Virus record (IMG/VR): IMGVR_UViG_3300010052_000182
Coordinates: 1 to 29,349 of that record
DNA length: 29,349 nucleotides
Source of the DNA: a virus
Taxonomy: Duplodnaviria; Caudoviricetes
Direction: 5' to 3' (one strand)
In this document: one piece after another, positions 1,537 to 19,833 of the stretch
Layout of the letters: the number at the start of each line of letters is the position of its first letter
Numbering within the stretch: the stretch's first letter is position 1
The notes under the pieces: model-generated
The model's input: only the letters and a program-made list of their open reading frames with translations
The model's database searches: none
What the model was told of the DNA's origin: nothing
Program-made: the position numbers and the translations under genes

Positions 1537-1570
1537 GCGGTCCGAGCACGCTGAACGTGCAGTCGGCGCA

Positions 1571-1781
1571 CCCTCTCCCACTTGCGGGGGAGGGTGGACC
1601 AGCCGACAGGCTGGTGGGAGGGGGGTGCCGCACGCATCGGCTTTGCCCCAGCCGCGCACCGTCCCGGCGTGGAGCATTGCCGACTGCGACGGCGGGGGCG
1701 TCAGCCCACCGTTTGAGCGTGGGGCACCCCCCTCCCACCACGCTTTCGCGTGGTCCCCCCTCCCCCGCAGGCGGGAGAGGG
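1571..1781. repeat. RIME-like intergenic element: ~59 bp inverted arms (1571-1629 and 1723-1781), each with internal hairpins
   Basis: ccctctccc-acttgc-gggggagggtggacc...ggtgggagggggg-tgcc is the near reverse complement of ggca-ccccctcccacc...ggtcccccctccccc-gcaggc-gggagaggg. Confidence 0.8.
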
Positions 1782-1836
1782 AGTCCTGACTGCGCCATCG
1801 GCGTCGTTTGACCCGTGCAGTGATTTAGGAGTTCCG

Positions 1837-3798: not shown

Positions 3799-3823
3799 GG
3801 TTGAGCCACGGGAAATCACCCCA

Positions 3824-3923
3824 AACTCGGTGTCATCCCAGCGAAAGCTGGGACCCATTTATCCACTGGCACGTGCTGCGAGTTGGGTCCCAGCTTTCGC
3901 TGGGATGACAGCCGGTGGGTGGG
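3824..3923. repeat. REP-like doublet, unit 1 (two inverted GTCATCCCAGCGAAAGCTGGGACCCA arms)
   Basis: Arms at 3832-3857 and 3884-3909; conserved flanks aactcggt and agccggtgggtggg. Confidence 0.9.
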
Positions 3924-3935
3924 TTGGCTTGGTGC

Positions 3936-4238
3936 CTACCAGATGCCTTTGCCCAATGCCGGAAACAGATCATCCCAATTCGGGTTCAGGTCCCGGAACA
4001 GCTCAATCTTCCATGCGCGCTGCCACGTCTTGATCTGTTTTTCTCGCGTGATCGCCGCCTCGACCGAGTCGTGCGGCTCGAACCACACGAGCCGGGTGAC
4101 ATCGTACTTGCTGGTGAACCCAGACACGACATGTTCGCGATGTTGCGCAACACGGCCCATCAGGTCGCTGGTCACGCCGGTGTAGAGCGTCCCGTTGCGC
4201 CGCGAGGCAAGCAGATACACGAAGTACGTTTTGTGCAC
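3936..4238 (-). CDS. Small GIY-YIG nuclease family protein, REP-flanked
   Basis: YFVYLLASRRNGTLYTGVT..L..RV.QH, FTSKYDV..LVWFE, AITREKQIK.W.RAWKI.L....NP.W.DL. GTG at 4238 with GGAGG upstream. The longer ORF start (4406) runs through the repeat. Confidence 0.9.
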   Translation of the reverse strand: MHKTYFVYLLASRRNGTLYTGVTSDLMGRVAQHREHVVSGFTSKYDVTRLVWFEPHDSVEAAITREKQIKTWQRAWKIELFRDLNPNWDDLFPALGKGIW

Positions 4239-4251
4239 CTGCAGCCCCTCC

Positions 4252-4350
4252 AACTCGGTGTCATCCCAGCGAAAGCTGGGACCCAACTCGCCGCAGCGCA
4301 AGTGGGTAGATGGGTCCCAGCTTTCGCTGGGATGACAGCCGGTGGGTGGG
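4252..4350. repeat. REP-like doublet, unit 2
   Basis: Same arms (4260-4285, 4311-4336) and same flanks as unit 1, in direct orientation. Confidence 0.9.
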
Positions 4351-4421
4351 AACAATTGTGCCACTTCCCAAGATCTGCGGCCCCACGAACCGGCCCACCG
4401 CCCCACACAAAAATTCCGTCC

Positions 4422-4524
4422 GCGCCACGATACGGCGCAACGGGCTGCCGGCGCCCTCTGGCCGGTTTCGCTGCACTCTCCGCGACAGTGAGGGTCACGC
4501 CAATCGGACGCGATAGTCCGGGAG
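4422..4524 (+). promoter_or_regulatory. Tandem stem-loops with CGAYA loops in the scaffold 5' leader, ending at the GGAG RBS
   Basis: gcgcc-acgatac-ggcgc (4422-4438), actctc-cgcgacagt-gagggt (4475-4495), cggac-gcgata-gtccg (4505-4520); GGAG 4521-4524. Confidence 0.45.
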
Positions 4525-4531
4525 ACACGAG

Positions 4532-5299
4532 ATGAACGACACTGAAACGGTCGACGATACCGCCTTGTTCAACGCTACCGTCACGGGTGAAGCGCCTGTG
4601 GCCGAAGCGGAGCCGGTGACCGAGCCGGTCGCTGAACCGCGGCCCGAGCCTGCTATTCCCCCTGCCCGGCTGCGTGAAGAAGCCGATGCAAGGCGGGCGG
4701 CGGAGCGGGATCGGGATGAGCTGAAGCATCGGCTCACCCGGCTCGAGGCGCAGCTGCAGCCGCAGCAACAGGCGGCACGGCCTCCCGAATTCTGGGACAA
4801 CCCGGATGAATGGGGCCGTTCGCTGGTCACCCCGATCCACGAGCAGCTGTTCCAGCAGCGGCAGGGCGTCTCTCGCCTCCTGGCGGAAGAAAAGCATGGG
4901 TCGGACAATGTCAGGGCGGCCTACAACGCGCTCGGGCAGGCCATGCAGACCGACCCGGCGGTGCAGACCGATTACCTCAGGATCATGCGGTCGAACCACC
5001 CCTATGGCGAGCTCGTCGCCTGGCACAAGAAGCGTCAGGCGTTCGATGAGATCGGCGGCGACCCCGCTGCCTATCGCAACCGCGTGCTCGACGAGGCGAT
5101 GCGGGACCCCGAAGTCCAGCAGCGTTTCCTCGCCCAGCTGCGCGGCGCTGCCCAGCCCAATATCGAAGCCCCCCGTCGTTCAACCGTGCCGCACATCCCC
5201 TCGCTGCAAGGCATCGGCACCGCCGCCGGCCCCGCATCCGCGGCCGGCGACCCCTCCGATGCCGAGCTGTTCTCGGCAACCACCCGCCGGCGGCGCTGA
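4532..5299 (+). CDS. Putative capsid scaffolding protein
   Basis: Between portal and capsid; acidic/Pro-rich N-terminus, IPPARLREE plus coiled coil, short C-terminal DAELF tail; GGAG RBS. Confidence 0.75.
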   Translation: MNDTETVDDTALFNATVTGEAPVAEAEPVTEPVAEPRPEPAIPPARLREEADARRAAERDRDELKHRLTRLEAQLQPQQQAARPPEFWDNPDEWGRSLVTPIHEQLFQQRQGVSRLLAEEKHGSDNVRAAYNALGQAMQTDPAVQTDYLRIMRSNHPYGELVAWHKKRQAFDEIGGDPAAYRNRVLDEAMRDPEVQQRFLAQLRGAAQPNIEAPRRSTVPHIPSLQGIGTAAGPASAAGDPSDAELFSATTRRRR

Positions 5300-5333
5300 A
5301 GGCGCGCCCGGCTGAAATCAGGACCATCAGACA

Positions 5334-6536
5334 ATGGCTCTTTCTCCCAACCACCCCAATAATGAAGTGATCAAGTTCCGCCAGGATGTCGCCTATGACT
5401 TCCTGCGCTCGTCGCGCTTCGATGCCTATATGGGCGACGATTCCACCTCGGTGATCGTGCGCATGTCGGATCTCGAAGCCGACGGCAAGGAGATCCGCGT
5501 GCCGCTCGTCACCCAGCTTTCGGGCGATGGCGTCGGCGCGGGGACGCTGCGCGGCAACGAAGAGCAGATCGACAGCTACGGCATGCCGCTCTGGGCCGAC
5601 TGGGCCAGAAACGCCGTGGCCAACAACCGGGCGCAGAACAAGGAGAGCTCGTTCTCGGTGCGCTCGACGGCCCGGAGCCTCCTGCGCGGCTGGTCGAAGC
5701 GGATCGTCCGCGACGACCTGGTCGATGCGCTGCTGTCGATCCCCACTTCGGCGATGCAGGCCGGCCGCTTCGGCAACCCCGGCAACCGGGTCAACGGCAT
5801 CAAGTGGTCGGCGGCCACCGCCGGCAACAAGAACGCCTGGGTCACTGCCAACCCCGACCGCGTGGTGTTCGGCTCGGCGCTCTCCAACTACTCGACCACC
5901 TTCGCCACCGCTGTGGGCAATGTCGATGCGGCCGCCGACAAGATGTCGGCGGCGGTTGGGAGCCTGTTAAAGGACCAGGCCAAGCAGACGGGCGTCGACC
6001 CCAACAACCCCGGTGTCTATAACGGCCGGCCCAGGATCAGCCCCTATATGGAAGCCGAAGGCGACCAGGAATGGTTCGTCTGCTTCGTCGGCGCCCGCGG
6101 CTTCCGCGATCTGAAGGCCGACCCGGTGATGACCGCGGCCAACCGCGACGCCCGCAACCGCGAAGGGGGCGACCCGACCAAGACCAACCCGCTCTTTACC
6201 GGCGGCGCGCTGGTCTATGACGGGGTGATCTATGTCGAGATCCCCGAGATCACCCAGCGCCTGCTGCTGAAGGGTGCCGGCGCCGCGGGGATCGATGTCG
6301 AGCCGGTGTTCCTCTGCGGCCAGGGGGCGCTCGCCTATGCTCTCGGCCAGATGCCGCGGCCGACCACGCTCGAGGACGGCGACTACGACTTCGTCACCGG
6401 CATGGGCATCGAAGCCCAGTACGGCGTCGGCAAGATCGCCAAGGCCCCGCTGGCGGCCGGGGCGTCGGCCACCATCGGCTCGCTGGTCGACTGGGGCGTG
6501 GTGACTGGGTTCGTCGCGGGGGTGGGGAATAGCTAG
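5334..6536 (+). CDS. Major capsid protein (DUF4043 / N4-gp56-like)
   Basis: 400 aa after the scaffold; G..IRVPLV.QLSG.GV...TLRGNEE, NPLFTGG..VYDGV, FLCGQGALAYA and DYDF..G.GI motifs. Confidence 0.85.
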   Translation: MALSPNHPNNEVIKFRQDVAYDFLRSSRFDAYMGDDSTSVIVRMSDLEADGKEIRVPLVTQLSGDGVGAGTLRGNEEQIDSYGMPLWADWARNAVANNRAQNKESSFSVRSTARSLLRGWSKRIVRDDLVDALLSIPTSAMQAGRFGNPGNRVNGIKWSAATAGNKNAWVTANPDRVVFGSALSNYSTTFATAVGNVDAAADKMSAAVGSLLKDQAKQTGVDPNNPGVYNGRPRISPYMEAEGDQEWFVCFVGARGFRDLKADPVMTAANRDARNREGGDPTKTNPLFTGGALVYDGVIYVEIPEITQRLLLKGAGAAGIDVEPVFLCGQGALAYALGQMPRPTTLEDGDYDFVTGMGIEAQYGVGKIAKAPLAAGASATIGSLVDWGVVTGFVAGVGNS

Positions 6537-6566
6537 GGCGGGCTCTCCCGCACCGCCCTCTCCGTA

Positions 6567-6804
6567 ATCCTCCCCCGCATGGCGGGGGAGGGGGACCAGC
6601 GAAGCTGGTGGAGGGGGCGGCGAGACGCTCAGTCGCTCGTCGCTTACGCTCCGATCGCACAACCTGCGGTTGCGATACCCCTCATCCGCCCTTCGGGCAC
6701 CTTCTCCCTCAAGGGGAGAAGGTAGGTCGGTGCGCAACTGCAGGCTCTTACTGCCCCCTCCACCGCCTACGGCGGTCCCCCTCCCCCGCCACGCGGGGGA
6801 GGAT
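6567..6804. repeat. RIME-like mosaic element: outer inverted arms (6567-6618, 6753-6804) plus an internal CCCCTCATCCGCCCTTCGGGCACCTTCTCCC..GGGAGAAGG unit (6678-6722)
   Basis: atcctcccccgcatggcgggggagggggacc...ggtggagggggc pairs with gccccctccacc...ggtccccctcccccgccacgcgggggaggat; same style as 1571-1781. Confidence 0.8.
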
Positions 6805-6879
6805 CACTGAGAGGCCGGTGCCCGCGCGCGAAGGCACCCTGCCCACATTCCCATTCCCCCTCACAAAAGGAGATCGGCC

Positions 6880-7302
6880 ATGGCTGATCGTAACGCCTAT
6901 AGCCAGCCGCAGGTTGGCAACCAGGGCTTTGCCCGGACCATGAAGTGCCTTGGCGCCGATGTGGCGCTCGTCGCCGGCGACCTTGCCCTCAACAAGACCG
7001 TCGGCCTGTTCGTGGTGCCGCGCGGCTTCGTGCTCACCGGCATTTCGGTGGTGGTGCCCGACCTCGACAGCAACGGCTCACCGCTCCTCACCTTCGCCAT
7101 TGGCGATGGCGGCGACGATGACCGGTTCATCGCCACCGGCGCCACCACCGGCCAGGCCGGCGGCACCAACACTACGCTGGCGGCGACGGGCCTGAACTAC
7201 GAGTTCACAGCCGATACCGAGATCGTCTGGAAGACCGTCGCCGCGGCGGCCACGGCGGTCGCCGGCACCATCCAGCCGCGCTTTTTCGGCTACATGAAGT
7301 AG
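6880..7302 (+). CDS. Putative capsid decoration / minor virion protein
   Basis: 140 aa, beta-rich, Ala/Gly/Thr-rich; directly after the capsid gene; AAGGAG RBS. Confidence 0.55.
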   Translation: MADRNAYSQPQVGNQGFARTMKCLGADVALVAGDLALNKTVGLFVVPRGFVLTGISVVVPDLDSNGSPLLTFAIGDGGDDDRFIATGATTGQAGGTNTTLAATGLNYEFTADTEIVWKTVAAAATAVAGTIQPRFFGYMK

Positions 7303-7310
7303 GCCCTGAT

Positions 7311-7655
7311 ATGGCGAAGGTCACCTACCACGCGCCCGAGGGCGACAGCGAAGTGGTGAGCCTTGCGGGGCTGCGCTTCTTCGATGGCGAGCCGCGCGAG
7401 CTCGACGATGCCGAGCACGTCGCCCTGCTCGGAAAGCTCATCCACAACCCACATTTCGGGGTCGAGGGCACGCTCACCGTGCTCGACGAAACCGACCCGC
7501 CGGCAATCGGGCTCAGGGCCATCCACAATGGCGGCGGGCGGTTCATCATCGTCCGTGGCGACAAGGACCAGAAGGTCAAGGACGGCCTCAACAAGGCCGA
7601 AGCCCACGCCTTCAACGCGCTGTCGGAGGCCGAGAAGCGGGCGTTTGTGGGTTAG
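7311..7655 (+). CDS. Hypothetical phage protein (head region)
   Basis: 114 aa ORF with phage-like codon usage, 8 nt after the previous stop. Confidence 0.6.
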   Translation: MAKVTYHAPEGDSEVVSLAGLRFFDGEPRELDDAEHVALLGKLIHNPHFGVEGTLTVLDETDPPAIGLRAIHNGGGRFIIVRGDKDQKVKDGLNKAEAHAFNALSEAEKRAFVG

Positions 7656-7695
7656 GGCGCGGCCGGCGGCGAAAACTGGTTGGCCTCGCCCCTGC

Positions 7696-7794
7696 CCCAC
7701 CCACCGGCTGTCATCCCTGCGAAAGCAGGGACCCAACTCGCCGCCCGCGCCAGCTGATGCTTGGGTCCCAGCTTTCGCTGGGATGACACCGAGT
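7696..7794. repeat. REP-like doublet, unit 3 (inverted relative to units 1 and 2)
   Basis: cccacccaccggct-gtcatccctgcgaaagcagggaccca...tgggtcccagctttcgctgggatgac-accgagt. Confidence 0.9.
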
Positions 7795-7886
7795 GTGGGG
7801 TGATTGCAGTGCGTCAGTTCGACTGCAGCGCAATCCCCCATCTCGCCGGCTGACTCGCACTTATCCCCTCCCACCCAGGAGCCCCC

Positions 7887-8225
7887 ATGCCCAAAACCCG
7901 TCACGACCTCGTCAACCGTGCGCTGGCCGAACTCGGCGTCGTCGGCGCCGGACAGACCGCTGCCGCCGAGGATTTCGATGAGATTGACAACGCGGTTGCC
8001 CCTGTCATGAGCGACCTCGCTACCCGGGATATCTGGGTGTGGGGCGACCCCGATGCCTATGACGACGATGCCTTCGACCACCTCGCGGTGCTGCTCGCCA
8101 ATGCCCGGGCCCGCGCCTTCGGCGTGGCGCCCGACGAGCAGAAGCGCTTCCTCGCCGAACAGCGGCTGCGTGGCCTGAAGCCCACGATCCTCTCCGGCCG
8201 CACCCAGGAAATCGAGTATTTCTGA
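7887..8225 (+). CDS. Putative head-tail adaptor (P22 gp4 position)
   Basis: KTR.DLVNRALAELGV..AGQT..AED N-terminus and short ..EYF C-terminus typical of podophage adaptors; AGGAG RBS. Confidence 0.7.
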   Translation: MPKTRHDLVNRALAELGVVGAGQTAAAEDFDEIDNAVAPVMSDLATRDIWVWGDPDAYDDDAFDHLAVLLANARARAFGVAPDEQKRFLAEQRLRGLKPTILSGRTQEIEYF

Positions 8226-8250
8226 TGCCCCGATCCCCTGGCCTGCCGGC
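8210..8250 (+). repeat. Left copy of imperfect direct repeat (adaptor stop / hub start junction)
   Basis: aatcgagtatttctgatgcccc-gatcccctggcctgccggc versus 13330-13371: 36 of 42 aligned positions identical by eye. Confidence 0.8.
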
Positions 8251-8420
8251 CAGGGGCCATGCCCGATGCGCTAGGCGCCTTTGGCGGCGCGCGTCTCCGT
8301 TAGTGAACGCATCCGGCCCGCGGAGTCCCCCTAGCAGCGCCACCACTCCATCGTCGCGTGGGCCAAGGCCGGCGCTACCGCCGGTTTCTCCTCCATAACC
8401 AACAGCTACGAGGTGCAATG

Positions 8421-10166
8421 ATGGCTTGGGTACCGTTCGATCCAAAGCAGCCCCCAACGTATTCGGAAGATCCGCTGCTCGCGATCTATCTGGCCAGGGC
8501 GCAGGACGCCAACGCCAACCGTCCCGAGACTTACGGCGAAAGCTACCTTGCGCAGGGCATGTCCGGGGTGAACGGGGGCATCGGAAAGCTCCTCGGAGGG
8601 CCGGTCGATCTCGGTGCAGGCCTGATCAACCTAGGCATCGGTGGGCTGAACCTGATGCTTACGCCCGAGCAGACCCTGGCGGACCAGATCGCCGGCATAC
8701 GACGGGAGCCGCCCCTCAAACCGATCGTGGACCCGGTAGGCGGCTCGCAGATGTTCAACCGCTTCATGGCCGATGTCGGCGCGATCACGCCGGAAACCGA
8801 TGACCCCAGCAAGCAGTTTGTGCGCCGCGCTGGCGAGGAAATTGGCGCTTCGATCGTCCCGACGATGGCCACGATGAGCCGTGCGGCACGCCCCCTTGCC
8901 GCTGCGGCCAAGGAACTCACCCTCGCAGCCGGCGCGGGCATCGGCGCCGCTACTGCGGATCAGCTGGCCCCGAACAACCCTTGGGCCGAGCTTGTAGGAC
9001 AGATATTGGGGACTGTTTCGGCAGCGGGCGCCACCAGGCTCGGCAAGAAACTCGTCACCCCATTTCCAGTTCGGGACCCCACTCAGCTCGGCGCGATGGA
9101 GATGTTGCGACGTGAGGGCATCGACCTTTCCGCGGGTCAGCAAACCGGACACAAGGGCCTGCAGAACATTGAAAGTGAATTGGCCGGTGCCCAGGTGGCG
9201 CAGCTCAGCGAGCAGCAGGCAGAGCAGTTCACCCAGGCCGTGCTCAAGCGGGCCGGCATTAACGCCAGTCGCGCAACCAAAGAGGTGCTGAAGGCTGGTT
9301 ATGAGCGCCTGGGCACCGCATTTGGCGACATCGGCTCGCGCAATGACATCCTGCTGGCAGACGGAAAACTTGGCAAGAAGCTGGGCGAAGCATACCAGAC
9401 GTATGCCAAGAGTACCGCTGAGGCCGATCGTCTGCCGGCGATCGATGACTTCATCATCGAAGCCGTCACGGCGATGAAATCGAAAGGTGGAGGTCACGTG
9501 ATTGATGGAAGTGCCTACGCTAGCCTCAGGACCCGGGTTGGCCTGCTGGCGCATGAGACGGCCGACCGCGCACAGAAATCCGCGCTCCTGGACATCCAGC
9601 GGGCCCTGGACGACGCTATGGAGAGCAACCTTTCCAAGGGAGATATCGACGCGTTTCGGTGGGCTCGCGCTGCGGATCGCGACTTCAGCATTATTGAGAA
9701 GGCGGCATTGCAGGACCCGTCCGGCGGGCTGATCTCACCAGAGGCGTTGCAGAAAGCCGCCGTGGCCGGACAGGGAGATCTCGCAAAGCTCGCCGACAGC
9801 GGCAAGGCCTTGATGACACCCCTGCCGTCCGGCTCAGCACCTAACGTGCGAAATCTGCTCGCAACGGTGCCGGCTGTCGCTGGCGGCACTCTTGGCTACT
9901 ACATGGGCGATGCGAATGGAGCGGTGAACGGAGCGGCGATCGGAGCGTTGGGCGGAGTTGCCGCGCCCTATGCCGCCGGTCGGGCAATCCTGTCGAAACC
10001 GGGACGACGGTACCTCGCTAACCAAGTGCTCAATGGATCACCTTCCGGGTCCAACGGTTTCGGACCGCTCGGTGCCATGCTAGCCGCGCAGACCAGCCAG
10101 ATCAGTCCGTCGCGCGACCCACTGGGCGAGTTGAGTGTGTTAATGCATCAAGCCGGGGTCAATTGA
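8421..10166 (+). CDS. Putative DNA ejection / internal virion protein (extra copy)
   Basis: ~580 aa Ala/Gly-rich helical protein with hydrophobic Gly-rich patches and C-terminal AGRAILSKPGRRYLANQ. GAGG RBS; start 8421 (or 8418). N-terminus shared with the 16413 gene. Confidence 0.6.
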   Translation: MAWVPFDPKQPPTYSEDPLLAIYLARAQDANANRPETYGESYLAQGMSGVNGGIGKLLGGPVDLGAGLINLGIGGLNLMLTPEQTLADQIAGIRREPPLKPIVDPVGGSQMFNRFMADVGAITPETDDPSKQFVRRAGEEIGASIVPTMATMSRAARPLAAAAKELTLAAGAGIGAATADQLAPNNPWAELVGQILGTVSAAGATRLGKKLVTPFPVRDPTQLGAMEMLRREGIDLSAGQQTGHKGLQNIESELAGAQVAQLSEQQAEQFTQAVLKRAGINASRATKEVLKAGYERLGTAFGDIGSRNDILLADGKLGKKLGEAYQTYAKSTAEADRLPAIDDFIIEAVTAMKSKGGGHVIDGSAYASLRTRVGLLAHETADRAQKSALLDIQRALDDAMESNLSKGDIDAFRWARAADRDFSIIEKAALQDPSGGLISPEALQKAAVAGQGDLAKLADSGKALMTPLPSGSAPNVRNLLATVPAVAGGTLGYYMGDANGAVNGAAIGALGGVAAPYAAGRAILSKPGRRYLANQVLNGSPSGSNGFGPLGAMLAAQTSQISPSRDPLGELSVLMHQAGVN

Positions 10167-10213
10167 GGTTGCCGTCCGCGGTGAGAATACGGGCGTTCCA
10201 TGACCGGTCGCCG

Positions 10214-10390
10214 CTACATCGATCGCTCAAAGATGAGTTTCACCAGCGACTGCAATGGACGGACGACGAAGTGGTAAAAGAGTCCGCTGGCAACTATGCC
10301 GAAGAACACCCCGACCGCCACGTTCAGCGCGATCGGGTTGGTGATTCCAAACACGCCGAGTATGGAATAGAAAAACTCCTGAAGTTGCAC
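10214..10390 (-). CDS. Small membrane protein (58 aa), convergent with the ejection-like gene
   Basis: GTG at 10390 with GGGAG upstream; hydrophobic IALNVAVGVFFGIVASGLFYHFVV segment. Confidence 0.6.
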   Translation of the reverse strand: MQLQEFFYSILGVFGITNPIALNVAVGVFFGIVASGLFYHFVVRPLQSLVKLIFERSM

Positions 10391-10488
10391 TGTATCGCTC
10401 CCGTCGTTGCATCGCCAACGATACGGGTGCGTCTTCGGGGCAGCAATGCCTCGCGCTCGTCGTCCCACTGGATGGTGGAGCGCTCTGG

Positions 10489-10778
10489 TTCGGTAAGTCC
10501 TTCAACAACGCGCTGGGGAACAGCGAAACCGCTTCCCATCTTCCCGGTCAACCCGACGTTTCCCCGCGCAATCTAGCGACCTCTATCGAGCCTGTTCACC
10601 GCGATCCCGCGAACAGCGGCGAAAACTGCAGCCAGCATGCGGCCCGAAGCTGTGAGTACTCGTATCGCTGCGACGCAGATGAACCGGCCAACACCGGCCT
10701 ATATCGACCAGTTGATCGCGGCGCGGGCTCTCGCCAACCGCAAGAGCCTTCTCCCGCCGGGCGGCGTCGCGGCAGCGC
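10489..10778 (+). pseudogene. Frameshifted orphan C-terminal fragment, type C, copy 1
   Basis: Translates FGKSFNNALGNSETASHLPGQPDVSP then, after a frame change, SLFTAIPRTAAKTAASMRPEAVSTRIAATQMNRPTPAYIDQLIAARALA; homologous to 12364-12561 and 13096-13293. Confidence 0.65.
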
Positions 10779-10784
10779 GGACAG

Positions 10785-10920
10785 CTACCCCCTCACGTTA
10801 CGAAGCCACATTGCGAGGGACACGCCCAAGCCGCCGCCAACCAGCGCACCCGCAATCACCCGACCCTCAGCCGAGAACCCATCTCTGAACAGGTAGAGGG
10901 TCATCGCAAACCGCAAGCCT
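10785..10920 (-). pseudogene. 3' remnant of a membrane-protein gene homologous to 19001-19138
   Basis: MTLYLFRDGFSAEGRVIAGALVGGGLGVSLAMWLRNVRG* aligns with VMLYLYQEVFSPEGRILAATLVGFGLSVCFLMWLRNVR*. Confidence 0.7.
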
Positions 10921-10939
10921 CGCGGCCACGATCCGCGAC

Positions 10940-11725
10940 GTGGCGCAATCCAATGGGCTGATCTCACGTAAAGGCCGGCTGGACGCCTCGCGTACGCCCA
11001 TCGTGCAGATCATCAAGTCCTTCGACGACCTCGCGGGCCGAAAGATGAGCGTCATGCAGATAAAGGCACTGCGGACCAGGCTCACCGACATTGCGAAAAG
11101 CAGCGACCCCGCCGAACGCCACATCGCCACCCAGATGCTCGAAGAGTTCGACACGTTCACGGACGCGCTGGCCGAGACTCTGAAGACGGGCAACGCACAT
11201 AGTCACAGTGCCGCAAAGGGCGACCTCATCGAAACCGCGATTGAAACTGCAGCCGAGGATGCCAAGCGGCCCAGTGGCACCGCCTTCGCGGACGCCTTAC
11301 GCACCCAATTCAGGGCCCTGCAGCACCAGATCAAAAGAGGCGAGCTTAGGGGGCTAACCGAAGCAGAGATCGATGCGATCAACAAGGTTGCCGATGGCAC
11401 GCCCATCGCAAATGTACTGCGCGGCATTGGACAAATTGCTCCTCCCGGTGCAGTCCCTGCCATGGCCCTTGGCATGGTTGCAGACGAACCCACGCTTGCC
11501 GGGTCGACTGCCATCGCGCTGGGCACGGCGGGGATCGGCAGTCGCGTCACCGCAAATACCTTGACCAAGAACGCCGCTGAATCGGCAGCGTTGATCGCAA
11601 GGAACGGCGGCGTGGCCGTACCGCGCAAGCAACTCACTGCAGAGGAGTTGGCTCTGATCGCATGGCTGCGGCGCGGAGCAAGTCTCGAAGCAGGGCAATC
11701 GCCATTGGAGGCACCAGCGCCGTAG
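10940..11725 (+). pseudogene. Orphan C-terminal half of an ejection-like protein (type B, paralogous to 16413-17972)
   Basis: AKSSDPAERHIATQMLEEFDTFTDAL vs ARSEMPGEAEVAKSMLKQLDSFMDGL; LIETAIETA vs IIETAIENA; LTEAEIDAI vs LSPEDIAGI. GTG start with no clear RBS; lacks the N-terminal half. Confidence 0.65.
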
Positions 11726-11848
11726 GCCTCGATGCGATCCGTCAGAGGCTCGCGTCCCGGGGCCCTGGACCGATTTACCCACGCCACCCCGTCCGGCGGA
11801 ACAGCATGCTCCAGCCGGAGGGTCGTGTCTTTGGACTTGATCGAGTTA

Positions 11849-12061
11849 CTAGGGCCACCATGGCAAGTGCCACCAATCAGGCCACGCCTTGCCAAGGGCG
11901 AAAAATGCGGCCCAGGCGATGACGATCAGAACCCATCGAATGTACCGCAACTCAAAGAGCACCTCCCGATTGTTCTGCCTCATGACCAAGCGCGTCTTGT
12001 CGCCCTCGGACATGCGATCAAAGATCTCTTGTTGGCGCATAAGCTTGTCTTTGCGGGACAT
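11849..12061 (-). CDS. Small membrane protein (70 aa, single C-terminal TM, Trp-rich tail)
   Basis: Charged helical N-terminus then WVLIVIAWAAFFALG; convergent with the 10940 fragment. Confidence 0.6.
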   Translation of the reverse strand: MSRKDKLMRQQEIFDRMSEGDKTRLVMRQNNREVLFELRYIRWVLIVIAWAAFFALGKAWPDWWHLPWWP

Positions 12062-12305
12062 CGTGAGAACATATCCATGTCGAAGCGATCGGCAATATGG
12101 CCACAGGTCCTCAGCGCCGCAAGATGCTTGCGGTCCCCCTACTGCCAGGCCGAGCAGCTTCGACCATCGGCACGGCGGCCAACGACTTCAAGGTCCTGAC
12201 GACGCGTTCAAGGGCCGGTCCGCCGAAGTCGGTCTCGATCCGTCGACAACGGAGAGCATGCTGTGGTCGCTAATGAAGTCAGATTACGGCGAAGCGGCCT
12301 TGCAG

Positions 12306-12362
12306 GCATCAGATCACCGCGAAGAAGCGGACGACACACCAAATGAACACGACCATCGATAC
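12306..12362 (-). repeat. 57 bp copy of the 3' end of the 18116 membrane gene
   Basis: gcatcagatcaccgcgaagaagcggacga(cac/ggc)accaaatgaacacgaccatcgatac, 55/57 identical to 18113-18169; encodes VSMVVFIWCVVRFFAVI*. Confidence 0.85.
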
Positions 12363-12363
12363 G

Positions 12364-12561
12364 GCGACGAACACTGCGGCCCGCATGCGGCCAGAAGCCG
12401 TCAATGCTCGTATTGCCGCGGCGCTGATGAATCGGCCATCACCGGCCTACGTCGACCAGTTGATCGCGGCGCGGGCGCTTGCCAGTCGCCAGGGCCTACC
12501 GGCGCCGGGCGTCGCGGCGGCATTGTCACAGCCTCAATGGCCTGAGATCAGCGGGCAGTGA
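12364..12561 (+). pseudogene. Orphan C-terminal fragment, type C, copy 2
   Basis: TAARMRPEAVNARIAAALMNRPSPAYVDQLIAARALA; clear DNA and protein match to 10625-10750. Confidence 0.7.
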
Positions 12562-12705
12562 TCACCAGTCGAGGTGCTTCAGACTGATAGTGAACGTTCC
12601 GCCGGCCATGAACCCGAACGCGACAATCACCAAGTAGACATGCCGCTCCAAGATGTCGGTCAGAAACCCGAAATAGACCAGCGAAACCAAGTCGCCCGGG
12701 CGGAG
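12562..12705 (-). pseudogene. Short membrane-protein ORF or 3' remnant
   Basis: Manual translation: LVSLVYFGFLTDILERHVYLVIVAFGFMAGGTFTISLKHLDW*; its stop abuts the stop of the type C fragment; no convincing start. Confidence 0.4.
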
Positions 12706-12735
12706 TTACCCCCGGATGCGCCGGCGCGCCCGGCG

Positions 12736-12942
12736 CTAGCGCCATAGGCTGAGGGTCCAGTCCGACAGCGCGAACGCAGGACCCCTAAGTAGCGCGGCCA
12801 CGAACAGCCCCAAGGCGATCCAGGCCGCATACACTGCAAGGCGTGCCAACCCGTCTGGTTGCATCGCCGGCTCACCCGGAAGCGGGTCCGCGCGGTAATC
12901 CTTCGGCTCAAGGTCGATCTGGGGAGGTCGCTTGTCGGTCAC
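12736..12942 (-). CDS. Small membrane protein (68 aa) with N-terminal DLEPxxYR motif
   Basis: PQIDLEPKDYR then a TM segment LAVYAAWIALGLFVAALL; motif shared with 18600-18932. Confidence 0.55.
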   Translation of the reverse strand: MTDKRPPQIDLEPKDYRADPLPGEPAMQPDGLARLAVYAAWIALGLFVAALLRGPAFALSDWTLSLWR

Positions 12943-13095
12943 TGGAGCACCACCGCGAAGTAATCAGGCGTCCGCACGAACCCAGGCCCAGTCGGCCCGG
13001 GTGGAAACAACCGGGCAACGCGATAGAGGACCCGAACCGCACTTGAGATGCCGAGCGCGCGACACGTCCTCAGCGACAAGCTGGTGTCGGCATCG

Positions 13096-13293
13096 GGTCC
13101 GGAGAAAGCTGACCAACTGATTGCGATCCCCTAGCGCGAGACTTGGGTTGGATAAATCCTTCAACTACGTGCCGGGGAACAGCGAAAACCGCTGCCCGCC
13201 TCTGCCGGTCACGCCGACGTTTCCCCCACGCAGTTCAACGGCCCGCCGGCGAGCCTGCTCAACGCGATCGCGCGAACTGCTGTCCGCATGCGC
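13096..13293 (+). pseudogene. Degenerate orphan C-terminal fragment, type C, copy 3
   Basis: GPEKADQLIAIP*RE..DKSFNYVPGNSE/TAARL..DVSP..SLLNAIARTAVRMR with stop and frameshifts; DNA tccttcaac..ggggaacagcgaaa(a)ccgct..ccgacgtttcccc matches 10498-10565. Confidence 0.65.
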
Positions 13294-13329
13294 GCGGCAT
13301 GTCTCCGGTGCTCTACCCAAACCAACCCC

Positions 13330-13371
13330 AATCGAGTATTCCCGATGCCCCCGATCAGCTGGCCTACCGGC
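13330..13371 (+). repeat. Right copy of imperfect direct repeat (contains the live hub start codon)
   Basis: aatcgagtattcccgatgcccccgatcagctggcctaccggc. Confidence 0.8.
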
Positions 13372-14763
13372 ACTGCGCCGGGCGTGAACCCCACCGAAAC
13401 CGGCGGCCGGCTGATCAATGCCATCGCCGAGCGGGCCCCCACGGGGTCGCGCAGCGAGATCGTCTGGCGCCGCGTCGCCGGGCTGATCGCCCGCTTCACC
13501 ACCACGCAGACCGCCATTCGCGGCGCGCTGCTGGTGGGCTCCGTGCTCTATGTCGTCTCCGGCAACCGGGTCTATTCGATCACCTCGAGTTATCTCGTGA
13601 CCGAACTGACCGGCACGGTTGGCGGCAGCGGCCCCGTCACCATGGCGCGCAACATGAAGGCGCCGGTGCCCGACGTGCTGATCGCTCACTCCGGCGGTAT
13701 GTCTTCCATCAATATCTCGACCGCCTCTGTCGCCGTGTTCAGCGATGGCGACCTGCCCTCGGTCAACTCGATCTGTTGGGTCGATGGCTATTTCATCGTC
13801 ACCGCCGAGAACGGGCTCGCCTACCAGTCGGGGCTCAACGACACCAGTTTCGCCTCGGTCGACCGCACCACGGCCGAGGCCGACCCGGACGGGCTCTATC
13901 GCGCCATCGCCTCGGGCAGCGACCTGATCCTGATGGGCACGGCCTCGCTCGAATTCTACGCCAATGCCGGCAACCCCACCGGCTTCGCCTTCAACCGCAG
14001 CGTGGTGGTGCCGATCGGGCTCAAAGCCCCCTATGCGGTGGCCGGGTTCGAGCCGGGCTTTGCCGATACGGTGATCTTCGTCGCCAATGACAACACGGTG
14101 CGCAAGCTCGGGGGTTATGACCCTACCCCGATCTCCGGGCCCGACCTCAACCGGCTGATCGAGGCGGTGACCAACCCCGCCGAGCTGATCGCCTGGGTCT
14201 ACCAGGCCGCCGGCCACGCCTATTGGGTGCTGAGCGGGCCGGGCTGGACCTGGGTCTACGACGTCTCGACCGGCAGCTGGCACGAGCGGCAGAGCTATGG
14301 TTTTGGCGATTGGCGCTGCCGCTATGGCGTCGCCGCCTGGAGCAAGTGGTTCACCTTCGACCTTCAAAGCGGCAAGGCGTTCGAGCTGAGCTCGGCGGCG
14401 CGGCGCGACGGGGCAAACCCGCTGGTCTGGACGCTGCGCTCCAACCAGGCGCACCGCTTCCCCGGCCGCGCTGTGATCCATAAAGCCAGCTTCGATTTCG
14501 AAACCGGCATCGGCATCGACGCCGGCATCTCGCCGATCGAAACCGACCCGGTGGTGCGGATCCGCTGGTCCGACGATGGCGGCCGCAGCTGGGGGAACCC
14601 CTTGACCCGCAAGATCGGCACGCAAGGCGAAGACCTGCCCATCGACATCAACAATGCCGGCCTCACCGGCCGCAAGGGCCGGATCTGGGAGATGAGCATT
14701 TCCGACCCCATCGAGATCGCGTTTTTCGGCGGCGCCATGGATATCGAGGAGCGCGCCGCATGA
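13345..14763 (+). CDS. Packaged-DNA stabilization / tail hub protein (P22 gp10-like)
   Basis: ~470 aa beta-rich; DGYFI, AEADPDGL, YQAAGH.YWVL..P..TWVYD.STGSWHERQS and WSDDGGRSW motifs. Start taken at ATG 13345 (MPPISWP). Confidence 0.85.
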   Translation: MPPISWPTGTAPGVNPTETGGRLINAIAERAPTGSRSEIVWRRVAGLIARFTTTQTAIRGALLVGSVLYVVSGNRVYSITSSYLVTELTGTVGGSGPVTMARNMKAPVPDVLIAHSGGMSSINISTASVAVFSDGDLPSVNSICWVDGYFIVTAENGLAYQSGLNDTSFASVDRTTAEADPDGLYRAIASGSDLILMGTASLEFYANAGNPTGFAFNRSVVVPIGLKAPYAVAGFEPGFADTVIFVANDNTVRKLGGYDPTPISGPDLNRLIEAVTNPAELIAWVYQAAGHAYWVLSGPGWTWVYDVSTGSWHERQSYGFGDWRCRYGVAAWSKWFTFDLQSGKAFELSSAARRDGANPLVWTLRSNQAHRFPGRAVIHKASFDFETGIGIDAGISPIETDPVVRIRWSDDGGRSWGNPLTRKIGTQGEDLPIDINNAGLTGRKGRIWEMSISDPIEIAFFGGAMDIEERAA

Positions 14764-15137
14764 GCACGCCCGACAGCCTGAGGCCGATCCCGCATCCCAG
14801 CGCCCGGCTGGTCGACGCCGACGGGGCGATCGCCAAACCCTGGTACGACTGGCTGAACCAGCTGGCGACAAAACTCGCCGAGCTGACCCCGCTCGAAGCC
14901 AGCGCGACTTACGATCCGCCGCTGCTCGCCGATGGCGCCGGCGCCACCACCGACGTGACGGTGCCGGGCGCGGCGCTCGGCGATTTCGCCACCGCAGCGT
15001 TCTCGCTGACGACGGCCGGCATCACCATCACCGCGTGGGTTACCGCCCCGAACACCGTTTCCGTCCGCTTCCAGAACGAAACCGGCATGCCGCTCGACTA
15101 TGGCAGCGGCAGGCTCACCGCCCGCGTTTACAAATAG
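14760..15137 (+). CDS. Small tail-associated protein (P22 gp26 position)
   Basis: ATGA overlap with the hub gene; IP....LVD..G.I.KPWYDWLN N-terminus then a beta-rich domain. Confidence 0.6.
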   Translation: MSTPDSLRPIPHPSARLVDADGAIAKPWYDWLNQLATKLAELTPLEASATYDPPLLADGAGATTDVTVPGAALGDFATAAFSLTTAGITITAWVTAPNTVSVRFQNETGMPLDYGSGRLTARVYK

Positions 15138-15146
15138 GAGCCTCAA

Positions 15147-15833
15147 ATGGCTGACATTTTCGAAACCATCGGCGACTGGCTGGGGCTCAACAAGGGCAAG
15201 GCCACGCAGAAGGCCGCCGAGCAGAACCGCGGCGTCATCAACCAGCTGGGCAATACCGGCCGGCCGATCATCGAGGGGATCCAGGGGGTTACCGGCGATT
15301 ACCTCGATCTCGGCAAGCTCGGCGCCGGCCGTTACGCCGATGCCATGGGCCTCAACGGCGCCGACGGCTACGCCCGGGCCGAGGAGGCGTTCCGCGCCGG
15401 GCCGGGCTACCAGTTCGCGCTCGACCAGGGGCTCGATGCGGTGGCCCGCAAGGGCTCGGCCATGGGTCGGCTCGATAGCGGCAATACCGATCTCGACCTG
15501 ATGCGCTACGCCACCGGCTATGCCGACCAGGCCTGGGGCAACTGGATGAACGGGCTCTCGGGCTACAACAATATGTACGGCCAGGGCGTCGGCAACGACG
15601 TCGCCGCCCGCGGCCTCGGGCTCGATTTCGAGAGCGGCCTCGCCTCGAGCTACATGGGCGCCAACAACCAGGTCGCCGCCGGCAAGGAAGCCGGCCAGGG
15701 CGCCATGCTCGACGCGCTGGGCGCCGTCGCCGGCATCGCCGGCCGCGCCTTCGGGGGCGGGGCATTTGGCGGCTATGGCGGCTTCGGTGGCAACTCCGTC
15801 AACCCCACCACCAAAATGCCCGCAAGCTTCTGA
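15147..15833 (+). CDS. DNA transfer / ejection protein (P22 gp7-like)
   Basis: Gly/Ala/Asn-rich with PGYQFALDQG..AV and G.L.SG.T motifs; AGGAG RBS; expected position. Confidence 0.75.
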   Translation: MADIFETIGDWLGLNKGKATQKAAEQNRGVINQLGNTGRPIIEGIQGVTGDYLDLGKLGAGRYADAMGLNGADGYARAEEAFRAGPGYQFALDQGLDAVARKGSAMGRLDSGNTDLDLMRYATGYADQAWGNWMNGLSGYNNMYGQGVGNDVAARGLGLDFESGLASSYMGANNQVAAGKEAGQGAMLDALGAVAGIAGRAFGGGAFGGYGGFGGNSVNPTTKMPASF

Positions 15834-15844
15834 GGAGCCCGAAG

Positions 15845-16303
15845 ATGGCACTGAACTACCCCAACTATGTCATTCCGCAGCCCTCGCAGACCAAGCCCAC
15901 CGACCTGCTCGACCTATGGGACCAGGGCGTGGCGCAGGGCAAAGCCGATCGCTACGAGCGTGAAGCGCCGCAGCAGTTCGCGAATGCCGCAGCGCCGTTG
16001 TCGCAGTACGGGCTCACGACGCCGCCCGATCAACTGCGGGCGCTATTCGCCAATCCCGACACGCGGCCGTTTGCCATGCAAATGGTGCAGGAAGCGACAC
16101 AGCGTCGGGCCGATGCCTATGCCTCGCCGGGTCAGCTCGGGGGGACGGCCCGGACGCCGCAGCCCACCGCATCGACCTCTCCCTACGCACCCTACCCTCT
16201 GCCGCGCGAAGCGCGTCCATCGCCGCCGGCCCAAAGGGGTTACGCCTTTACCGGCTTCACCGGCGGTGACTCCTCCAGCCCCGCAAATTGGGAGAGACCC
16301 TGA
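15845..16303 (+). CDS. Short putative ejection protein (gp20 position)
   Basis: GAGGAG RBS; Pro/Gln-rich 152 aa ending GYAFTGFTGGDSSSPANWERP; lies between the gp7-like gene and the large ejection-like gene. Confidence 0.55.
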   Translation: MALNYPNYVIPQPSQTKPTDLLDLWDQGVAQGKADRYEREAPQQFANAAAPLSQYGLTTPPDQLRALFANPDTRPFAMQMVQEATQRRADAYASPGQLGGTARTPQPTASTSPYAPYPLPREARPSPPAQRGYAFTGFTGGDSSSPANWERP

Positions 16304-16413
16304 TGGCCGATCCCCGGGAGAACTTGGCCCTCATTCCCGATCACCGCTCCCGCAGACTCATACGCGCCGCTTTCGGCCCCTCCCTCGCAACCAAAGCTAG
16401 CAAGGTGCAATAA
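16303..16413 (+). other. 36-codon mini-ORF overlapping both neighbours (TGATG and TAATG)
   Basis: MADPRENLALIPDHRSRRLIRAAFGPSLATKASKVQ*; GGGAGAG RBS upstream. Confidence 0.4.
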
Positions 16414-17972
16414 TGGTTGGTGTACCCTTCAACCCCCAGCAGCCAAAGGGCTTGGTCAATGAGTCGCACGCCGCGGCCAACGCCGCCCAGGATCCGTTGC
16501 TCAGCCTATACCTGAAGAACACGTATGGCCTCGAGCCCGCGGGAGCAAAACCGGACTTCACCGAGAATGTGGCCCGGGCCGCGGGGCAGGGCTTGTCGTT
16601 TGGCTGGGGCGATGAACTGTTTTCGCTCGGCCAGGCGGGCCTAGATCAGTTGCTGCACGGCGACGACGGCAAGGATTTATGGCAACGGTACGACTCCAAT
16701 GTCGCTCGCGAGCGCCGCAACCTCGAAGCCTTTCGCCAGGAGAACCCGATCGTTGCCTATGGCGCCGAGATCCTGGGCTCACTCCCGACTGCACTCGTGA
16801 CCGGCGGCACCGGCACAGCCACCGGCCTGGGCCGGATCGGCACAAACCTCCTGGTCAACGGCGTTCAGGGCGCTTTTTACGGCGCGGGCGCGGCCAGCGG
16901 TGACACGCTTGCCGACCGTGGCTGGGGTGCGGCTACCGGTGCGGCTGGCGGCATGGCCGCAGGCGTCGCGCTCGATGCAGCTGGAAATGCTGTCAACGCC
17001 GGACTCAAAGCAGGCGCCAAATACCTTGCCGACTCAAAGACCATCGCCGCCGCACCAAGCGGTGCTGCCGTCAAGGCTACCGCGGAGGCAGCCCGTGAGG
17101 CAGCCGAGTCAGCGGACGTGGTCTTAACGCCCACCGCTACCAGTCTCCTCAAGCAGGACTTGGGCCAGACCCTGGTTGGTGAAGGGGTGACGGTCCGCGG
17201 CGAGATGGTCGCGAACTACGATCGAGTGCGTGGCTCTATGAGGTTGCTCGACCAGTTCGCGGACGAGCCGATGACAATCAAGTCGTTCCGGCGGCTCTAC
17301 GAGAGCTTCGAATACGCGGCTCGTAGCGAAATGCCGGGCGAAGCCGAGGTCGCCAAAAGTATGCTCAAGCAACTCGACAGCTTTATGGACGGCTTGCCGC
17401 AGGAGGCATTCAAGGGCACCGGCGACGGTGTTGAGGCTGCGGCGCAATGGCGCGCGGCGAAGGCACAACTTGCGAAATTCGAGCGCACAAACATTATTGA
17501 GACAGCAATCGAGAACGCGAGAACATTCGGTGACAATTTTCCAGAAGGCCTCAAAAATGAGTTCCGCGAAATCCTGAGAAGCGGGGAAAAGAAAGCCAAA
17601 CTGTCACCAGAAGACATTGCCGGTATTAAGCACTTCATTCAGGGCGATAACATCAACAAGGCCCTTAAGTTCCTGAGCGAGGCCGATTTACGCGGCGCCC
17701 TCGATGAGCTCCCCATCCCAAAAATCGTCGGCAGGATGGCGCAACCGTTCGTCAGAGGAGCTGCCCGAGGGCAGATCGGCCAAAACGCCCAGCGCTCTGC
17801 TGACATTGTGCGGGCCACCGCCGCACTTGGCGAAGCAATCCCTCCCGTACCTACGGGGACGCTCGACCTCCGCGCATTGGCTCCAGGGCTCGGCAACAAC
17901 GACGGGGTTCATATCATCGTCAACGGTGGGAATCCCCTGCTCCCGCCCTATGTCGACGATCGGTCGTATTGA
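16413..17972 (+). CDS. Putative large DNA ejection / internal virion protein (gp16 position)
   Basis: 519 aa; AAGQGLSFGWGDEL, F...NPI.AYGAEILG, Gly/Ala-rich hydrophobic middle and helical C-terminal half; AAGGT RBS. Confidence 0.7.
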   Translation: MVGVPFNPQQPKGLVNESHAAANAAQDPLLSLYLKNTYGLEPAGAKPDFTENVARAAGQGLSFGWGDELFSLGQAGLDQLLHGDDGKDLWQRYDSNVARERRNLEAFRQENPIVAYGAEILGSLPTALVTGGTGTATGLGRIGTNLLVNGVQGAFYGAGAASGDTLADRGWGAATGAAGGMAAGVALDAAGNAVNAGLKAGAKYLADSKTIAAAPSGAAVKATAEAAREAAESADVVLTPTATSLLKQDLGQTLVGEGVTVRGEMVANYDRVRGSMRLLDQFADEPMTIKSFRRLYESFEYAARSEMPGEAEVAKSMLKQLDSFMDGLPQEAFKGTGDGVEAAAQWRAAKAQLAKFERTNIIETAIENARTFGDNFPEGLKNEFREILRSGEKKAKLSPEDIAGIKHFIQGDNINKALKFLSEADLRGALDELPIPKIVGRMAQPFVRGAARGQIGQNAQRSADIVRATAALGEAIPPVPTGTLDLRALAPGLGNNDGVHIIVNGGNPLLPPYVDDRSY

Positions 17973-18115
17973 ACCCCGAGAGCTTCTCGGCGGGATGAGT
18001 CTTTTGCTACGACAGTTCGTGCTGAGCTGTCGCTCTGCAGCAAGGAAAACGAGCGTCAATTCGCTCGACGCCTCCGATGCCCCTTCGACAACATCGCTTC
18101 ATCTCGAACCAAGCA

Positions 18116-18511
18116 TCAGATCACCGCGAAGAAGCGGACGAGGCACCAAATGAACACGACCATCGATACCAAGGCTGGGACCAGGTTCCACGCGGCTCTG
18201 TGAAACTCTTTCGAGTTGCGCCTCTCTCGCGCCTCAACCTCGTCAATGGCTCTTTCCTTCCCTTTGGGATCGAGAAGCCTTCGCATTTCCATCCGAGCTT
18301 CGGCGACCTCCTGCTTCAGCTCGCGAATCTCTGCGTTGTTTCCACTCCCCGTCGAATTGATCATCGCATAAAGCATTCCGGCGAGCGTAACGATCAGCAC
18401 CTCGGTACGGTCGGTTACCCGCTCGAGCACGTACCAGACGACGCCGAGCGGTATCAAATTGATCCCGACGATCAAAAGGGACCAGACACCCAGAAACAGC
18501 GTGCGCAACAT
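18116..18511 (-). CDS. Membrane protein (about 3 TM plus coiled coil), convergent with the ejection gene
   Basis: Start taken at ATG 18511 (MLRTLFLG) after GGAGAGAGAAGG; alternative start 18628. Two N-terminal hydrophobic segments, charged helix, C-terminal TM. Confidence 0.65.
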   Translation of the reverse strand: MLRTLFLGVWSLLIVGINLIPLGVVWYVLERVTDRTEVLIVTLAGMLYAMINSTGSGNNAEIRELKQEVAEARMEMRRLLDPKGKERAIDEVEARERRNSKEFHRAAWNLVPALVSMVVFIWCLVRFFAVI

Positions 18512-18599
18512 ACGGCCTTCTCTCTCCAACGTCGGGCGAACATAGTGGCGAAGGTCCTTGCTGGGAAGGCGGGCGGCGCCGCGCGCCAGCCACACGAAC

Positions 18600-18932
18600 T
18601 CACTTCGGAAGTCGAGCGTGCGGTACATCCTCAGTCGTTCCCGCCTTGGATCGGCCTATCTTTGCCGGACCCCGATCCTTCGCTTCAGTTGCACGCTTGA
18701 TCCGCGTTCCGTCCAGGGCTTCGTGCAAGACGATCAGGGCGATGCCAGGAGCCAGCACCAACCCCCAGGCAACCCACTGCGGAACAGGTGGGAAGAATGA
18801 TAGCACCCCTGCCGCCAGGAACGGGGCCAGGATGCCGGGCGGAACAGCGAGCGTCGCCAGCCACCCCATGTCTCGCAGACTATAGGTGCCATTGCGACGA
18901 TACTGATGCGGTTCAAGATCCAGATCAGGCAT
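18600..18932 (-). CDS. Small 2-TM membrane protein with N-terminal DLEPxxYR motif
   Basis: MPDLDLEPHQYR; hydrophobic WLATLAVPPGILAPFLAAGVLSFF and WVAWGLVLAPGIALIVL. Confidence 0.6.
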   Translation of the reverse strand: MPDLDLEPHQYRRNGTYSLRDMGWLATLAVPPGILAPFLAAGVLSFFPPVPQWVAWGLVLAPGIALIVLHEALDGTRIKRATEAKDRGPAKIGRSKAGTTEDVPHARLPK

Positions 18933-19000
18933 CAGAACCCGAAAGAGCTAACCAGTCACTGGACGGCTATGGCGAAGCTGCGGAGCGCGAGCGAATTCCA

Positions 19001-19641: not shown

Positions 19642-19833
19642 TGGAGCTTGTCCTGGCTGGTGCATCGCCGACGCCGCAGCACGCGCCATAGCAACCGCCA
19701 ACGGCGTCGTTCTGAGAAATACCAGCCCTCATCTATCCCCCAAGCAATCGAACACAGCATAGTCACGGCGATCGGCCCCGCAAGCTGTTTGCGTGTTGCC
19801 GACAGCCCATCCCCTCCCCACGGAGACTTCCCC

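Follow-up and report, generated by a model that had tools for sequence, protein, structure and literature searches.

The DNA analysed here (the window) is a single contig of 29,349 bases, IMG/VR virus record IMGVR_UViG_3300010052_000182. It carries a P22-like podovirus virion module, with genes for the terminase, a P22-type portal, the capsid, a closure protein, a gp7-like ejection protein, the tail, a fibre and an endolysin. The ejection locus resembles that of P22, a P22-type portal, the closure gene and three ejection genes lying 5′ of the tail gene (PF16510, PHROG 578, 598 and 26400). Between positions 8421 and 13293, a full-length gp16-like ejection gene is followed by an array in which 3′ ends of further ejection genes (tips) on the plus strand alternate with small convergent genes for predicted membrane proteins. 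An original prediction, made from the sequence alone, had described this array and had proposed that tips and membrane genes are swapped and stacked as units, giving a library of exclusion specificities and perhaps spare tips. Our comparison with related loci confirms the observation and partly supports its interpretation: the units are displaced pairs of an ejection gene and its cognate membrane gene.

Ejection and membrane genes of the array

We tabulated 29 cassettes; two near copies of the window's were dropped, which leaves 24 from the clade resident in host chromosomes (see below) and three outgroups, and several metagenome loci repeating known ones were not added. Their full ejection genes sort into at least seven types that diverge strongly (A, B, C, D/D2/D3, E, F and G), the ratio of nonsynonymous to synonymous substitution rates (dN/dS) being 0.13–0.37 within types. 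Identity between types is mostly below 30%, up to 44% locally, and the types differ over the whole length (about 20–45%). The first membrane family after a full gene is characteristic of its type (B 4/4, C 2/2, D and D2 together 5/5, E 5/5, F 2/2, G 1/1, A 2/3). Orphan fragments show the same association: 20 of the 23 that lie directly 5′ of a membrane gene precede the cognate family, against a shuffled mean of 5.5 and with none of 100,000 shuffles reaching 20, although the 23 units share ancestry and are not 23 independent events. The type C tip at 12361, which the script had paired with an F0 remnant, precedes F3 when read by hand, and this raises the cognate pairs to 21 of 23. Relatives have full-length genes with the B and C tips as their ends. 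The array is thus not a chance arrangement, and the co-occurrence of tip type and membrane family, which the original prediction had wanted checked, is non-random.

Resident cassettes hold one to seven membrane genes, three or more in 18 of the 24, while the three outgroups have one each and two intact prophages, like most other podophages, a single convergent one. At site 2 of the window and in all three outgroup cassettes they lie between gene 16 and the tail gene, the position of sieA in P22. Tandem divergent F3 copies follow type C at L018 15374–16128, L015 8697–9362, L044 6070–6734 and L046 4289–5035, which suggests sub-specificities. Families F5, F12 and F7 may form one remote single-helix superfamily (alignment A6).

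The plus-strand products had rightly been taken for ejection proteins, and they are gp16-like. The 581-amino-acid (aa) gene matches PHROG 26400 (DNA ejection), profile comparison shows homology between types A and D, and Atlas feature matches to P22 gp16 (PF26808; 0.95–0.96 for types A and B) give a lead without alignment. PHROG 21712 was matched by the 581-aa gene, the B tip and the 519-aa gene; its label, 'major head protein', was rejected for these proteins, the capsid gene being that at 5334–6536. The predicted type A model is almost all helical (predicted local distance difference test score 78). The structure search that had been proposed gave resemblance only to uncharacterised phage proteins: Foldseek found no PDB match at E ≤ 0.001, an absence that excludes nothing, and the best VIA match (Z 10.1 over 93 residues) is a generic helical bundle. 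A PDB sequence search with the type A profile returned no match, and the C/F/H alignment matched only itself in viral contigs.

The orphan tips have a median length of 101 bp (range 37–805), compared with 1.4–2.1 kb for full ejection genes. Among the 17 tips aligned to a full allele, 12 carry a frameshifting indel or a new stop (in the B tip a compensated pair, maybe an alignment effect). No usable start covers any of the 17. Type E tips usually amount to only 84–101 bp antisense to the end of the F4 gene. Within the B tip, 22 differences from L008 and L010 cluster in 11215–11434, against 2–4 elsewhere in 8300–11800, which indicates that it has served as a recombination target. The tips are mostly decaying leftovers and by-products of turnover, at most recombination handles.

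The elements listed in the original prediction are all present, the full gene and the first membrane gene as given, and likewise the intact F5 gene, the F0 end and the C tip ending at 12561. The C tip read at 10489–10778 has homology over a slightly shorter span and no proper open reading frame (ORF); the membrane remnant read at 10785–10920 is the end of an F2 gene, position 10920 being out of frame; and the ORF of the B tip stands, with homology starting further upstream and no Shine–Dalgarno sequence at its start. Of two membrane ORFs at 12562–12705 and 12736–12942, the second is intact and the first is a truncated F3 gene. The stretch at 13096–13293, listed as a tip, is a broken internal piece of a type C gene.

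Table 1. Features of the window, by position (cognate, usual partner of the ejection type; REP, repetitive extragenic palindromic)
Positions	Strand	Feature	Basis or remark
1–8225	+	Head genes: terminase, portal, scaffold-like, capsid, adaptor	Host REP palindromes between genes
8210–8288	+	Left duplication junction: adaptor end and closure start fused to 3′ part of gp7-like gene	8210–8250 matches 13330–13371; 8245–8288 matches 15690–15734
8421–10166	+	Full gp16-like ejection gene, type A, site 1, 581 aa	PHROG 26400 DNA ejection, E 8.6e-15; PF26808 lead; dN/dS 0.24 to relatives
10214–10390	−	Membrane gene F1, 58 aa, partner of type A in window and L018	Family assignment, pairing
10497–10776	+	Broken type C 3′ fragment without proper ORF	Two frameshifts relative to full C gene
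10785–10916	−	Remnant of membrane family F2, last 42 aa	Homology
10907–11725	+	Orphan 3′ half of type B gene, homology from 10907; ORF 10940–11725, 261 aa	74% (aa) to type B of L013
11849–12061	−	Intact membrane gene F5, cognate of type B	After 4/4 full B genes; under 294-bp X20 contig
12165–12307	+	Scraps of type C and type F genes	Homology; not in original prediction
12309–12362	−	Last 17 codons of F0 membrane gene	95% identical to 18110–18169
12346–12561	+	Type C tip, in frame, without a start carrying Shine–Dalgarno	Homology to full C genes
12562–12683	−	5′-truncated membrane gene F3, cognate of type C, cut by left end of replaced block	Whole (85 aa) in L008, L010; homology stops at 12683
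12736–12942	−	Intact membrane gene F13, 68 aa	44% homologue after B-like gp16 gene in L175
13077–13277	+	Internal type C fragment, broken (frameshifts and stop)	Gene positions 1647–1835 of 2034
13288–13344	+	Right duplication junction: tail gene piece joined to adaptor end	13288–13317 matches 19979–20008
15147–15833	+	gp7-like ejection gene	PHROG 598 DNA ejection
15845–16303	+	Shrunken gp20-like gene, 152 aa, without transglycosylase-like part of outgroup copies	dN/dS 0.10–0.39
16413–17972	+	Full gp16-like ejection gene, type D, site 2, 519 aa	Homologous to type A, hhalign 97.6%
18116–18511	−	Intact membrane gene F0D, cognate of type D, with upstream promoter-like motif	Family and motif
18600–18932	−	Intact membrane gene F4, cognate of type E	After 5/5 full E genes
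18603–18700	+	Orphan type E tip, antisense to F4 gene end	Homology; not in original prediction
19001–19641	−	Membrane gene F2, split by frameshift	Whole (213 aa) in L025

Retention and expression of the membrane genes

Counting a membrane gene as whole when it covers 85% of its representative without a stop, 25 of 27 in first position and 40 of 61 in later positions are whole. Their dN/dS is mostly 0.2–0.6. Upstream of all 11 F0 genes lies a TATGTT or TACGTT sequence resembling a −10 element, mostly preceded by a CTTCCC- or CTTCAC-like hexamer; a looser promoter-like pattern occurs in 17 of 60 upstream regions (shuffled mean 5.5), an excess driven by F0, and a generic promoter scan gave two sites with 2.3 expected. 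In line with the original prediction, the membrane genes look like real genes that may be expressed separately. Their membrane nature rests on hydropathy, and the inner membrane would be their location. A profile of F0 finds 5 of 243 family genomes, all six places being at resident cassettes.

Contigs of run X20 cover the F5 gene (294 bp, 11777–12070, no differences) and the 5′ part of F4, and others cover a host ribosomal protein operon (95–99% alike to G001). This single run, whose RNA status is guessed and which carries no strand information, was found through the F5 contig; 26 of 30 bins of 7800–20200 and positions 668–4002 of L130 are uncovered, and lack of cover was not counted as evidence. 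Of 24 runs, none is listed as holding RNA. The contigs give a weak, single-run hint that F5 and F4 are transcribed.

Duplication, turnover and residence in Devosia

Region 8223–13345 is a second ejection cassette that arose by tandem duplication of the stretch from closure to tail gene, plus deletion. The duplication is present in L007–L010, L013, L015, L018, L023, L025, L044 and L046, and absent from L011, L012, L014, L016, L017, L021, L022, L024, L041, L043 and L047. Ejection types move between the sites: type A occupies site 1 in the window and site 2 in L009 and L018, so the gene at 16413–17972, called native in the original prediction, is no more so than that at 8421–10166. Lineages with the duplication have two different full ejection genes per genome. 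One of the two is frameshifted or damaged at its 5′ side in three two-site genomes (L007 6338–7989, L015 13272–14842, L023 13257–14761); at site 1 of L009 (5769–8489), closure start, gp7-like end and spacer form one open frame of 906 codons into a type E gene; and site 1 of L023 (4675–7185) holds insertion sequence (IS)-like transposase ORFs.

Block replacement can be followed in close relatives and supports the proposed swapping and stacking of units. Over 6880–12683 and from 19807 onwards, the window matches L008 and L010 at about 100% identity, while the block 12683–19807 differs and is 89–100% identical to L025 from 14900 to 19400. On the left this block cuts into the F3 gene and on the right it stops at the conserved tail start, ends that would fit recombination with one homologous and one illegitimate end. 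Related pairs occur in other Devosiaceae prophages. Of 243 family genomes, 22 have B/D-like ejection genes, in some cases at a second locus in a carrier of the resident module. Among 17 such loci examined, five of the seven with D3 as best match (30–49% identity) are followed by an F17 homologue (34–58%), as is one D-like gene, and a B-like gene is followed by an F13 homologue; a 50% homologue of F6 follows an A-like phage gene. Among 64 records of other phages, 46 have a convergent hydrophobic ORF whose end adjoins the ejection gene, compared with 5 of 64 at a control position. A strict count of convergent membrane ORFs in 69 records, which left out eight short ones, gave none in 41, one in 24, two in four and never more. 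Orphan tips downstream of the ejection gene were seen in none of 64 other phages, the queries, and so the result, being biased towards the Devosia pool.

Six genome records with Devosia or Devosiaceae in their titles contain copies of the window's closure protein at 80–97% identity, and the protein was detected in 9 of 243 family genomes. In G134, G002 and G005, the genomes covered by our check of the flanks (the window's own contig begins at the terminase), bacterial genes flank the module and these flanks are common to the three at 74–86% identity. No integrase was found on the contig or nearby at the module in these genomes, nor any replication family among 70 scanned flank proteins (of about 114 called). 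Virion and lysis genes are conserved while early genes are absent, and the virion genes are under purifying selection (dN/dS mostly 0.05–0.3); these are features of gene transfer agents (GTAs) and domesticated prophages. G244 and G232 are fuller prophages with integrase matches, and ORFs in them were read by eye, without family search, as helicase, primase and repressor; the upstream side of L024 lies beyond its contig end. In the genomes checked it is a resident, replication-less podovirus virion module in Devosia chromosomes, which may still produce particles. Its gp20-like gene encodes 152–163 aa, against 522–591 aa with a transglycosylase-like domain in the outgroups L016, L024 and L034; the reduced gene is conserved across the whole resident clade, with dS above that of core genes.

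REP-like host palindromes lie within the head gene cluster at 3816–3923, 4244–4350 and 7694–7805, with 105 copies in G134, 288 in G001 and none in G244 or G232. Two long inverted-repeat elements between head genes (1539–1813 and 6550–6821; arms of 97 and 76 nucleotides) are likely another host repeat or a miniature inverted-repeat transposable element. Only some relatives have the DUF1647-like gene (24831–25541) and the Kelch and GT4 glycosyltransferase gene (25637–27946) inserted 5′ of the endolysin gene, possible surface-modification morons. The tail fibre gene contains three 70-nucleotide repeats (21390–21711). In L025 (4389–5661) and L047 (426–1791) the closure gene is split by a frameshift, by decay or sequencing error.

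Possible functions and relation to known systems

We lean slightly towards the array being a library of SieA-like entry-exclusion genes, stacked in the duplicated ejection cassette of a resident module. Pairs of ejection and membrane genes would arrive on phage or particle DNA, recombine via one homologous and one illegitimate end and displace older pairs. The old ejection genes are worn down from their 5′ side until short tips are left, and the membrane genes mostly remain whole. Pairing, displacement, lopsided erosion, block replacement and residence are seen in the loci compared. To these the proposal adds expression, an inner-membrane location, a block of the cognate conduit and particle production: each membrane gene would be transcribed from its own leftward promoter, its product would sit in the inner membrane and jam the cognate gp16-like channel in the manner of P22 SieA, and the retained genes would block entry of particles using a matching ejection protein. 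The front full-length ejection gene would be kept because the module still builds particles.

Several findings weigh against this library of exclusion genes. By the script's rule, 21 of the 61 later membrane genes are partial or broken, and only three of the six within 8421–13293 are whole. Higher dN/dS values were obtained for pairs of F5 (0.46–1.10) and F2 (0.52–0.89). Physical linkage alone would suffice to explain the pairing, even though the pairing still identifies the units as displaced pairs, and there are exceptions to it: F12 rather than F1 follows type A in L009, and F12 also follows an F/B chimera. A relaxed, noisy count gave two or more hydrophobic ORFs within 1.2 kb in 33 of 64 other phages; the relaxed rule counts chance antisense ORFs too, and on this count stacks are not shown to be unique to the array. 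No sequence link to SieA emerged, as none of 22 membrane proteins matched a named family in Pfam or NCBIfam at cut-off; the SieA motif FxRYPxEAxxFNK was not seen in the membrane representatives inspected, SieA itself not having been aligned. Exclusion by SieA types A and B of P22, which are 24% identical, could not be told apart (PMC10883804), so allele-specificity is not the known rule.

Another explanation, which we regard as unlikely, is a capsid-borne bacteriocin. Its particles would place the polymorphic gp16-like protein in the inner membrane of kin strains and so kill them, with the stacked membrane genes as cognate and orphan immunity genes. It would account for the absence of early genes beside conserved virion and lysis genes of low dN/dS, for the cut-down gp20-like gene that lost its transglycosylase-like part, and for two different full ejection genes per genome, and the layout is that of pore-forming colicins with their convergent inner-membrane immunity genes. 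However, ordinary prophages show the same one-gene pairing, the retained terminase and portal point towards packaging of DNA, and the model of type A, the only type searched, has no clear match to a toxin domain or fold, only to generic helical bundles. Rather less probable is that recombination with passing prophages piles neutral debris, old gene ends, in a tolerant spot where nothing after the first pair works. Broken tips, the partial later membrane genes and the IS-like insertion in L023 would be expected of debris, and the dN/dS values below 1 may be a relic of a time in active phages. Yet the erosion is lopsided, ejection genes of 1.4–2.1 kb having dwindled to a median of 101 bp and two thirds of the membrane genes in later positions being whole, upstream motifs persist, and RNA-like contigs lie on two orphan genes.

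It could also be that the membrane proteins neutralise the module's own ejection protein during particle production and that orphans linger without an exclusion role. Tight cognate pairing and co-divergence are consistent with such self-protection, but it leaves the retention of orphans without an ejection gene unexplained, and 18 of 64 phage records have no such ORF; we consider it improbable. The least probable explanation, largely refuted, is that the orphan C-termini are spare tips, recombined onto a conserved trunk to change specificity as in contact-dependent inhibition (CDI) and Rhs loci. Chimeras do exist (L043 joins an F-like first 100 aa to a B body, and D and D2 have their first 150 aa in common), and there is the recombination tract inside the B tip. 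The true chimeras, however, join at about residue 100–150 and exchange about 75–80% of the protein, types diverge along the whole protein with no conserved trunk or fixed trunk–tip junction, and the tips are short, often broken and startless, the E tip being mostly antisense overlap, so that the spare tips of the original prediction are unsupported.

CDI/Rhs loci contain orphan toxin–immunity arrays, and the array resembles them, and MuF loci, in that 3′ ends of displaced genes, together with their cognate partners, are stacked behind a full gene. It differs in the missing trunk–tip junction, in that no toxin domain was found with the type A model, in its convergent membrane-gene partners and in the decay of its tips. 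Acquired interbacterial defence arrays against type VI secretion are libraries of orphan immunity genes, and there too protective genes are retained without a cognate effector; the present array is built from phage ejection loci, and no integron-like recombinase was seen. Pore-forming colicins share the gene layout and the predicted location of the partner, whereas here the partner is a virion ejection protein with no match to the colicin fold. PBSX is a defective-prophage particle. Like it, GTAs and FpGTA I, a GTA with short-tail homologues (PMC12946183), the Devosia element is a resident virion module without replication genes in which terminase, capsid and lysis genes are conserved. Unlike them it is known from genes alone, and its polymorphic, duplicated ejection cassette with stacks of membrane genes is undescribed in the literature searched. 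Our literature search found no description of such an array, most subscription papers being outside its reach.

A close parallel is P22 SieA, which blocks injection and is escaped by mutations in the C-terminal parts of gp16 and gp20 (PMC10883804); in both cases a small membrane gene lies between a gp16-like gene and a tail gene, and the ejection conduit is the likely target. The same paper describes one sieA gene per phage locus, compared with the one to seven genes per cassette here, and the SieA types tested there are not allele-specific. The array has no detectable homology to sieA, no direct comparison having been made; it pairs many unrelated families with ejection types, and the Devosia element is without early genes.

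A wider possibility, which we hold only tentatively and think unlikely, is a domesticated Devosia podovirus particle system in which interchangeable gp16-like ejection proteins would be directed at kin as warheads or entry keys with allele specificity. It would spread its cassettes through packaging of its locus in place and keep the cognate membrane immunity genes as a record of past encounters. If that were true, it would be a polymorphic conflict system derived from the ejection apparatus of a phage. The SieA study (PMC10883804) names as an open question how exclusion proteins of the inner membrane recognise ejection proteins as diverse as those of short-tailed phages. The locus offers at least eight natural pairs of ejection type and membrane family within a single host genus, which allows specificity to be tested in matrix form. 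Exclusion by the retained genes would show that bacteria can hoard phage exclusion genes like orphan immunity genes, and in Devosia the locus points to a resident podovirus particle system not described before.

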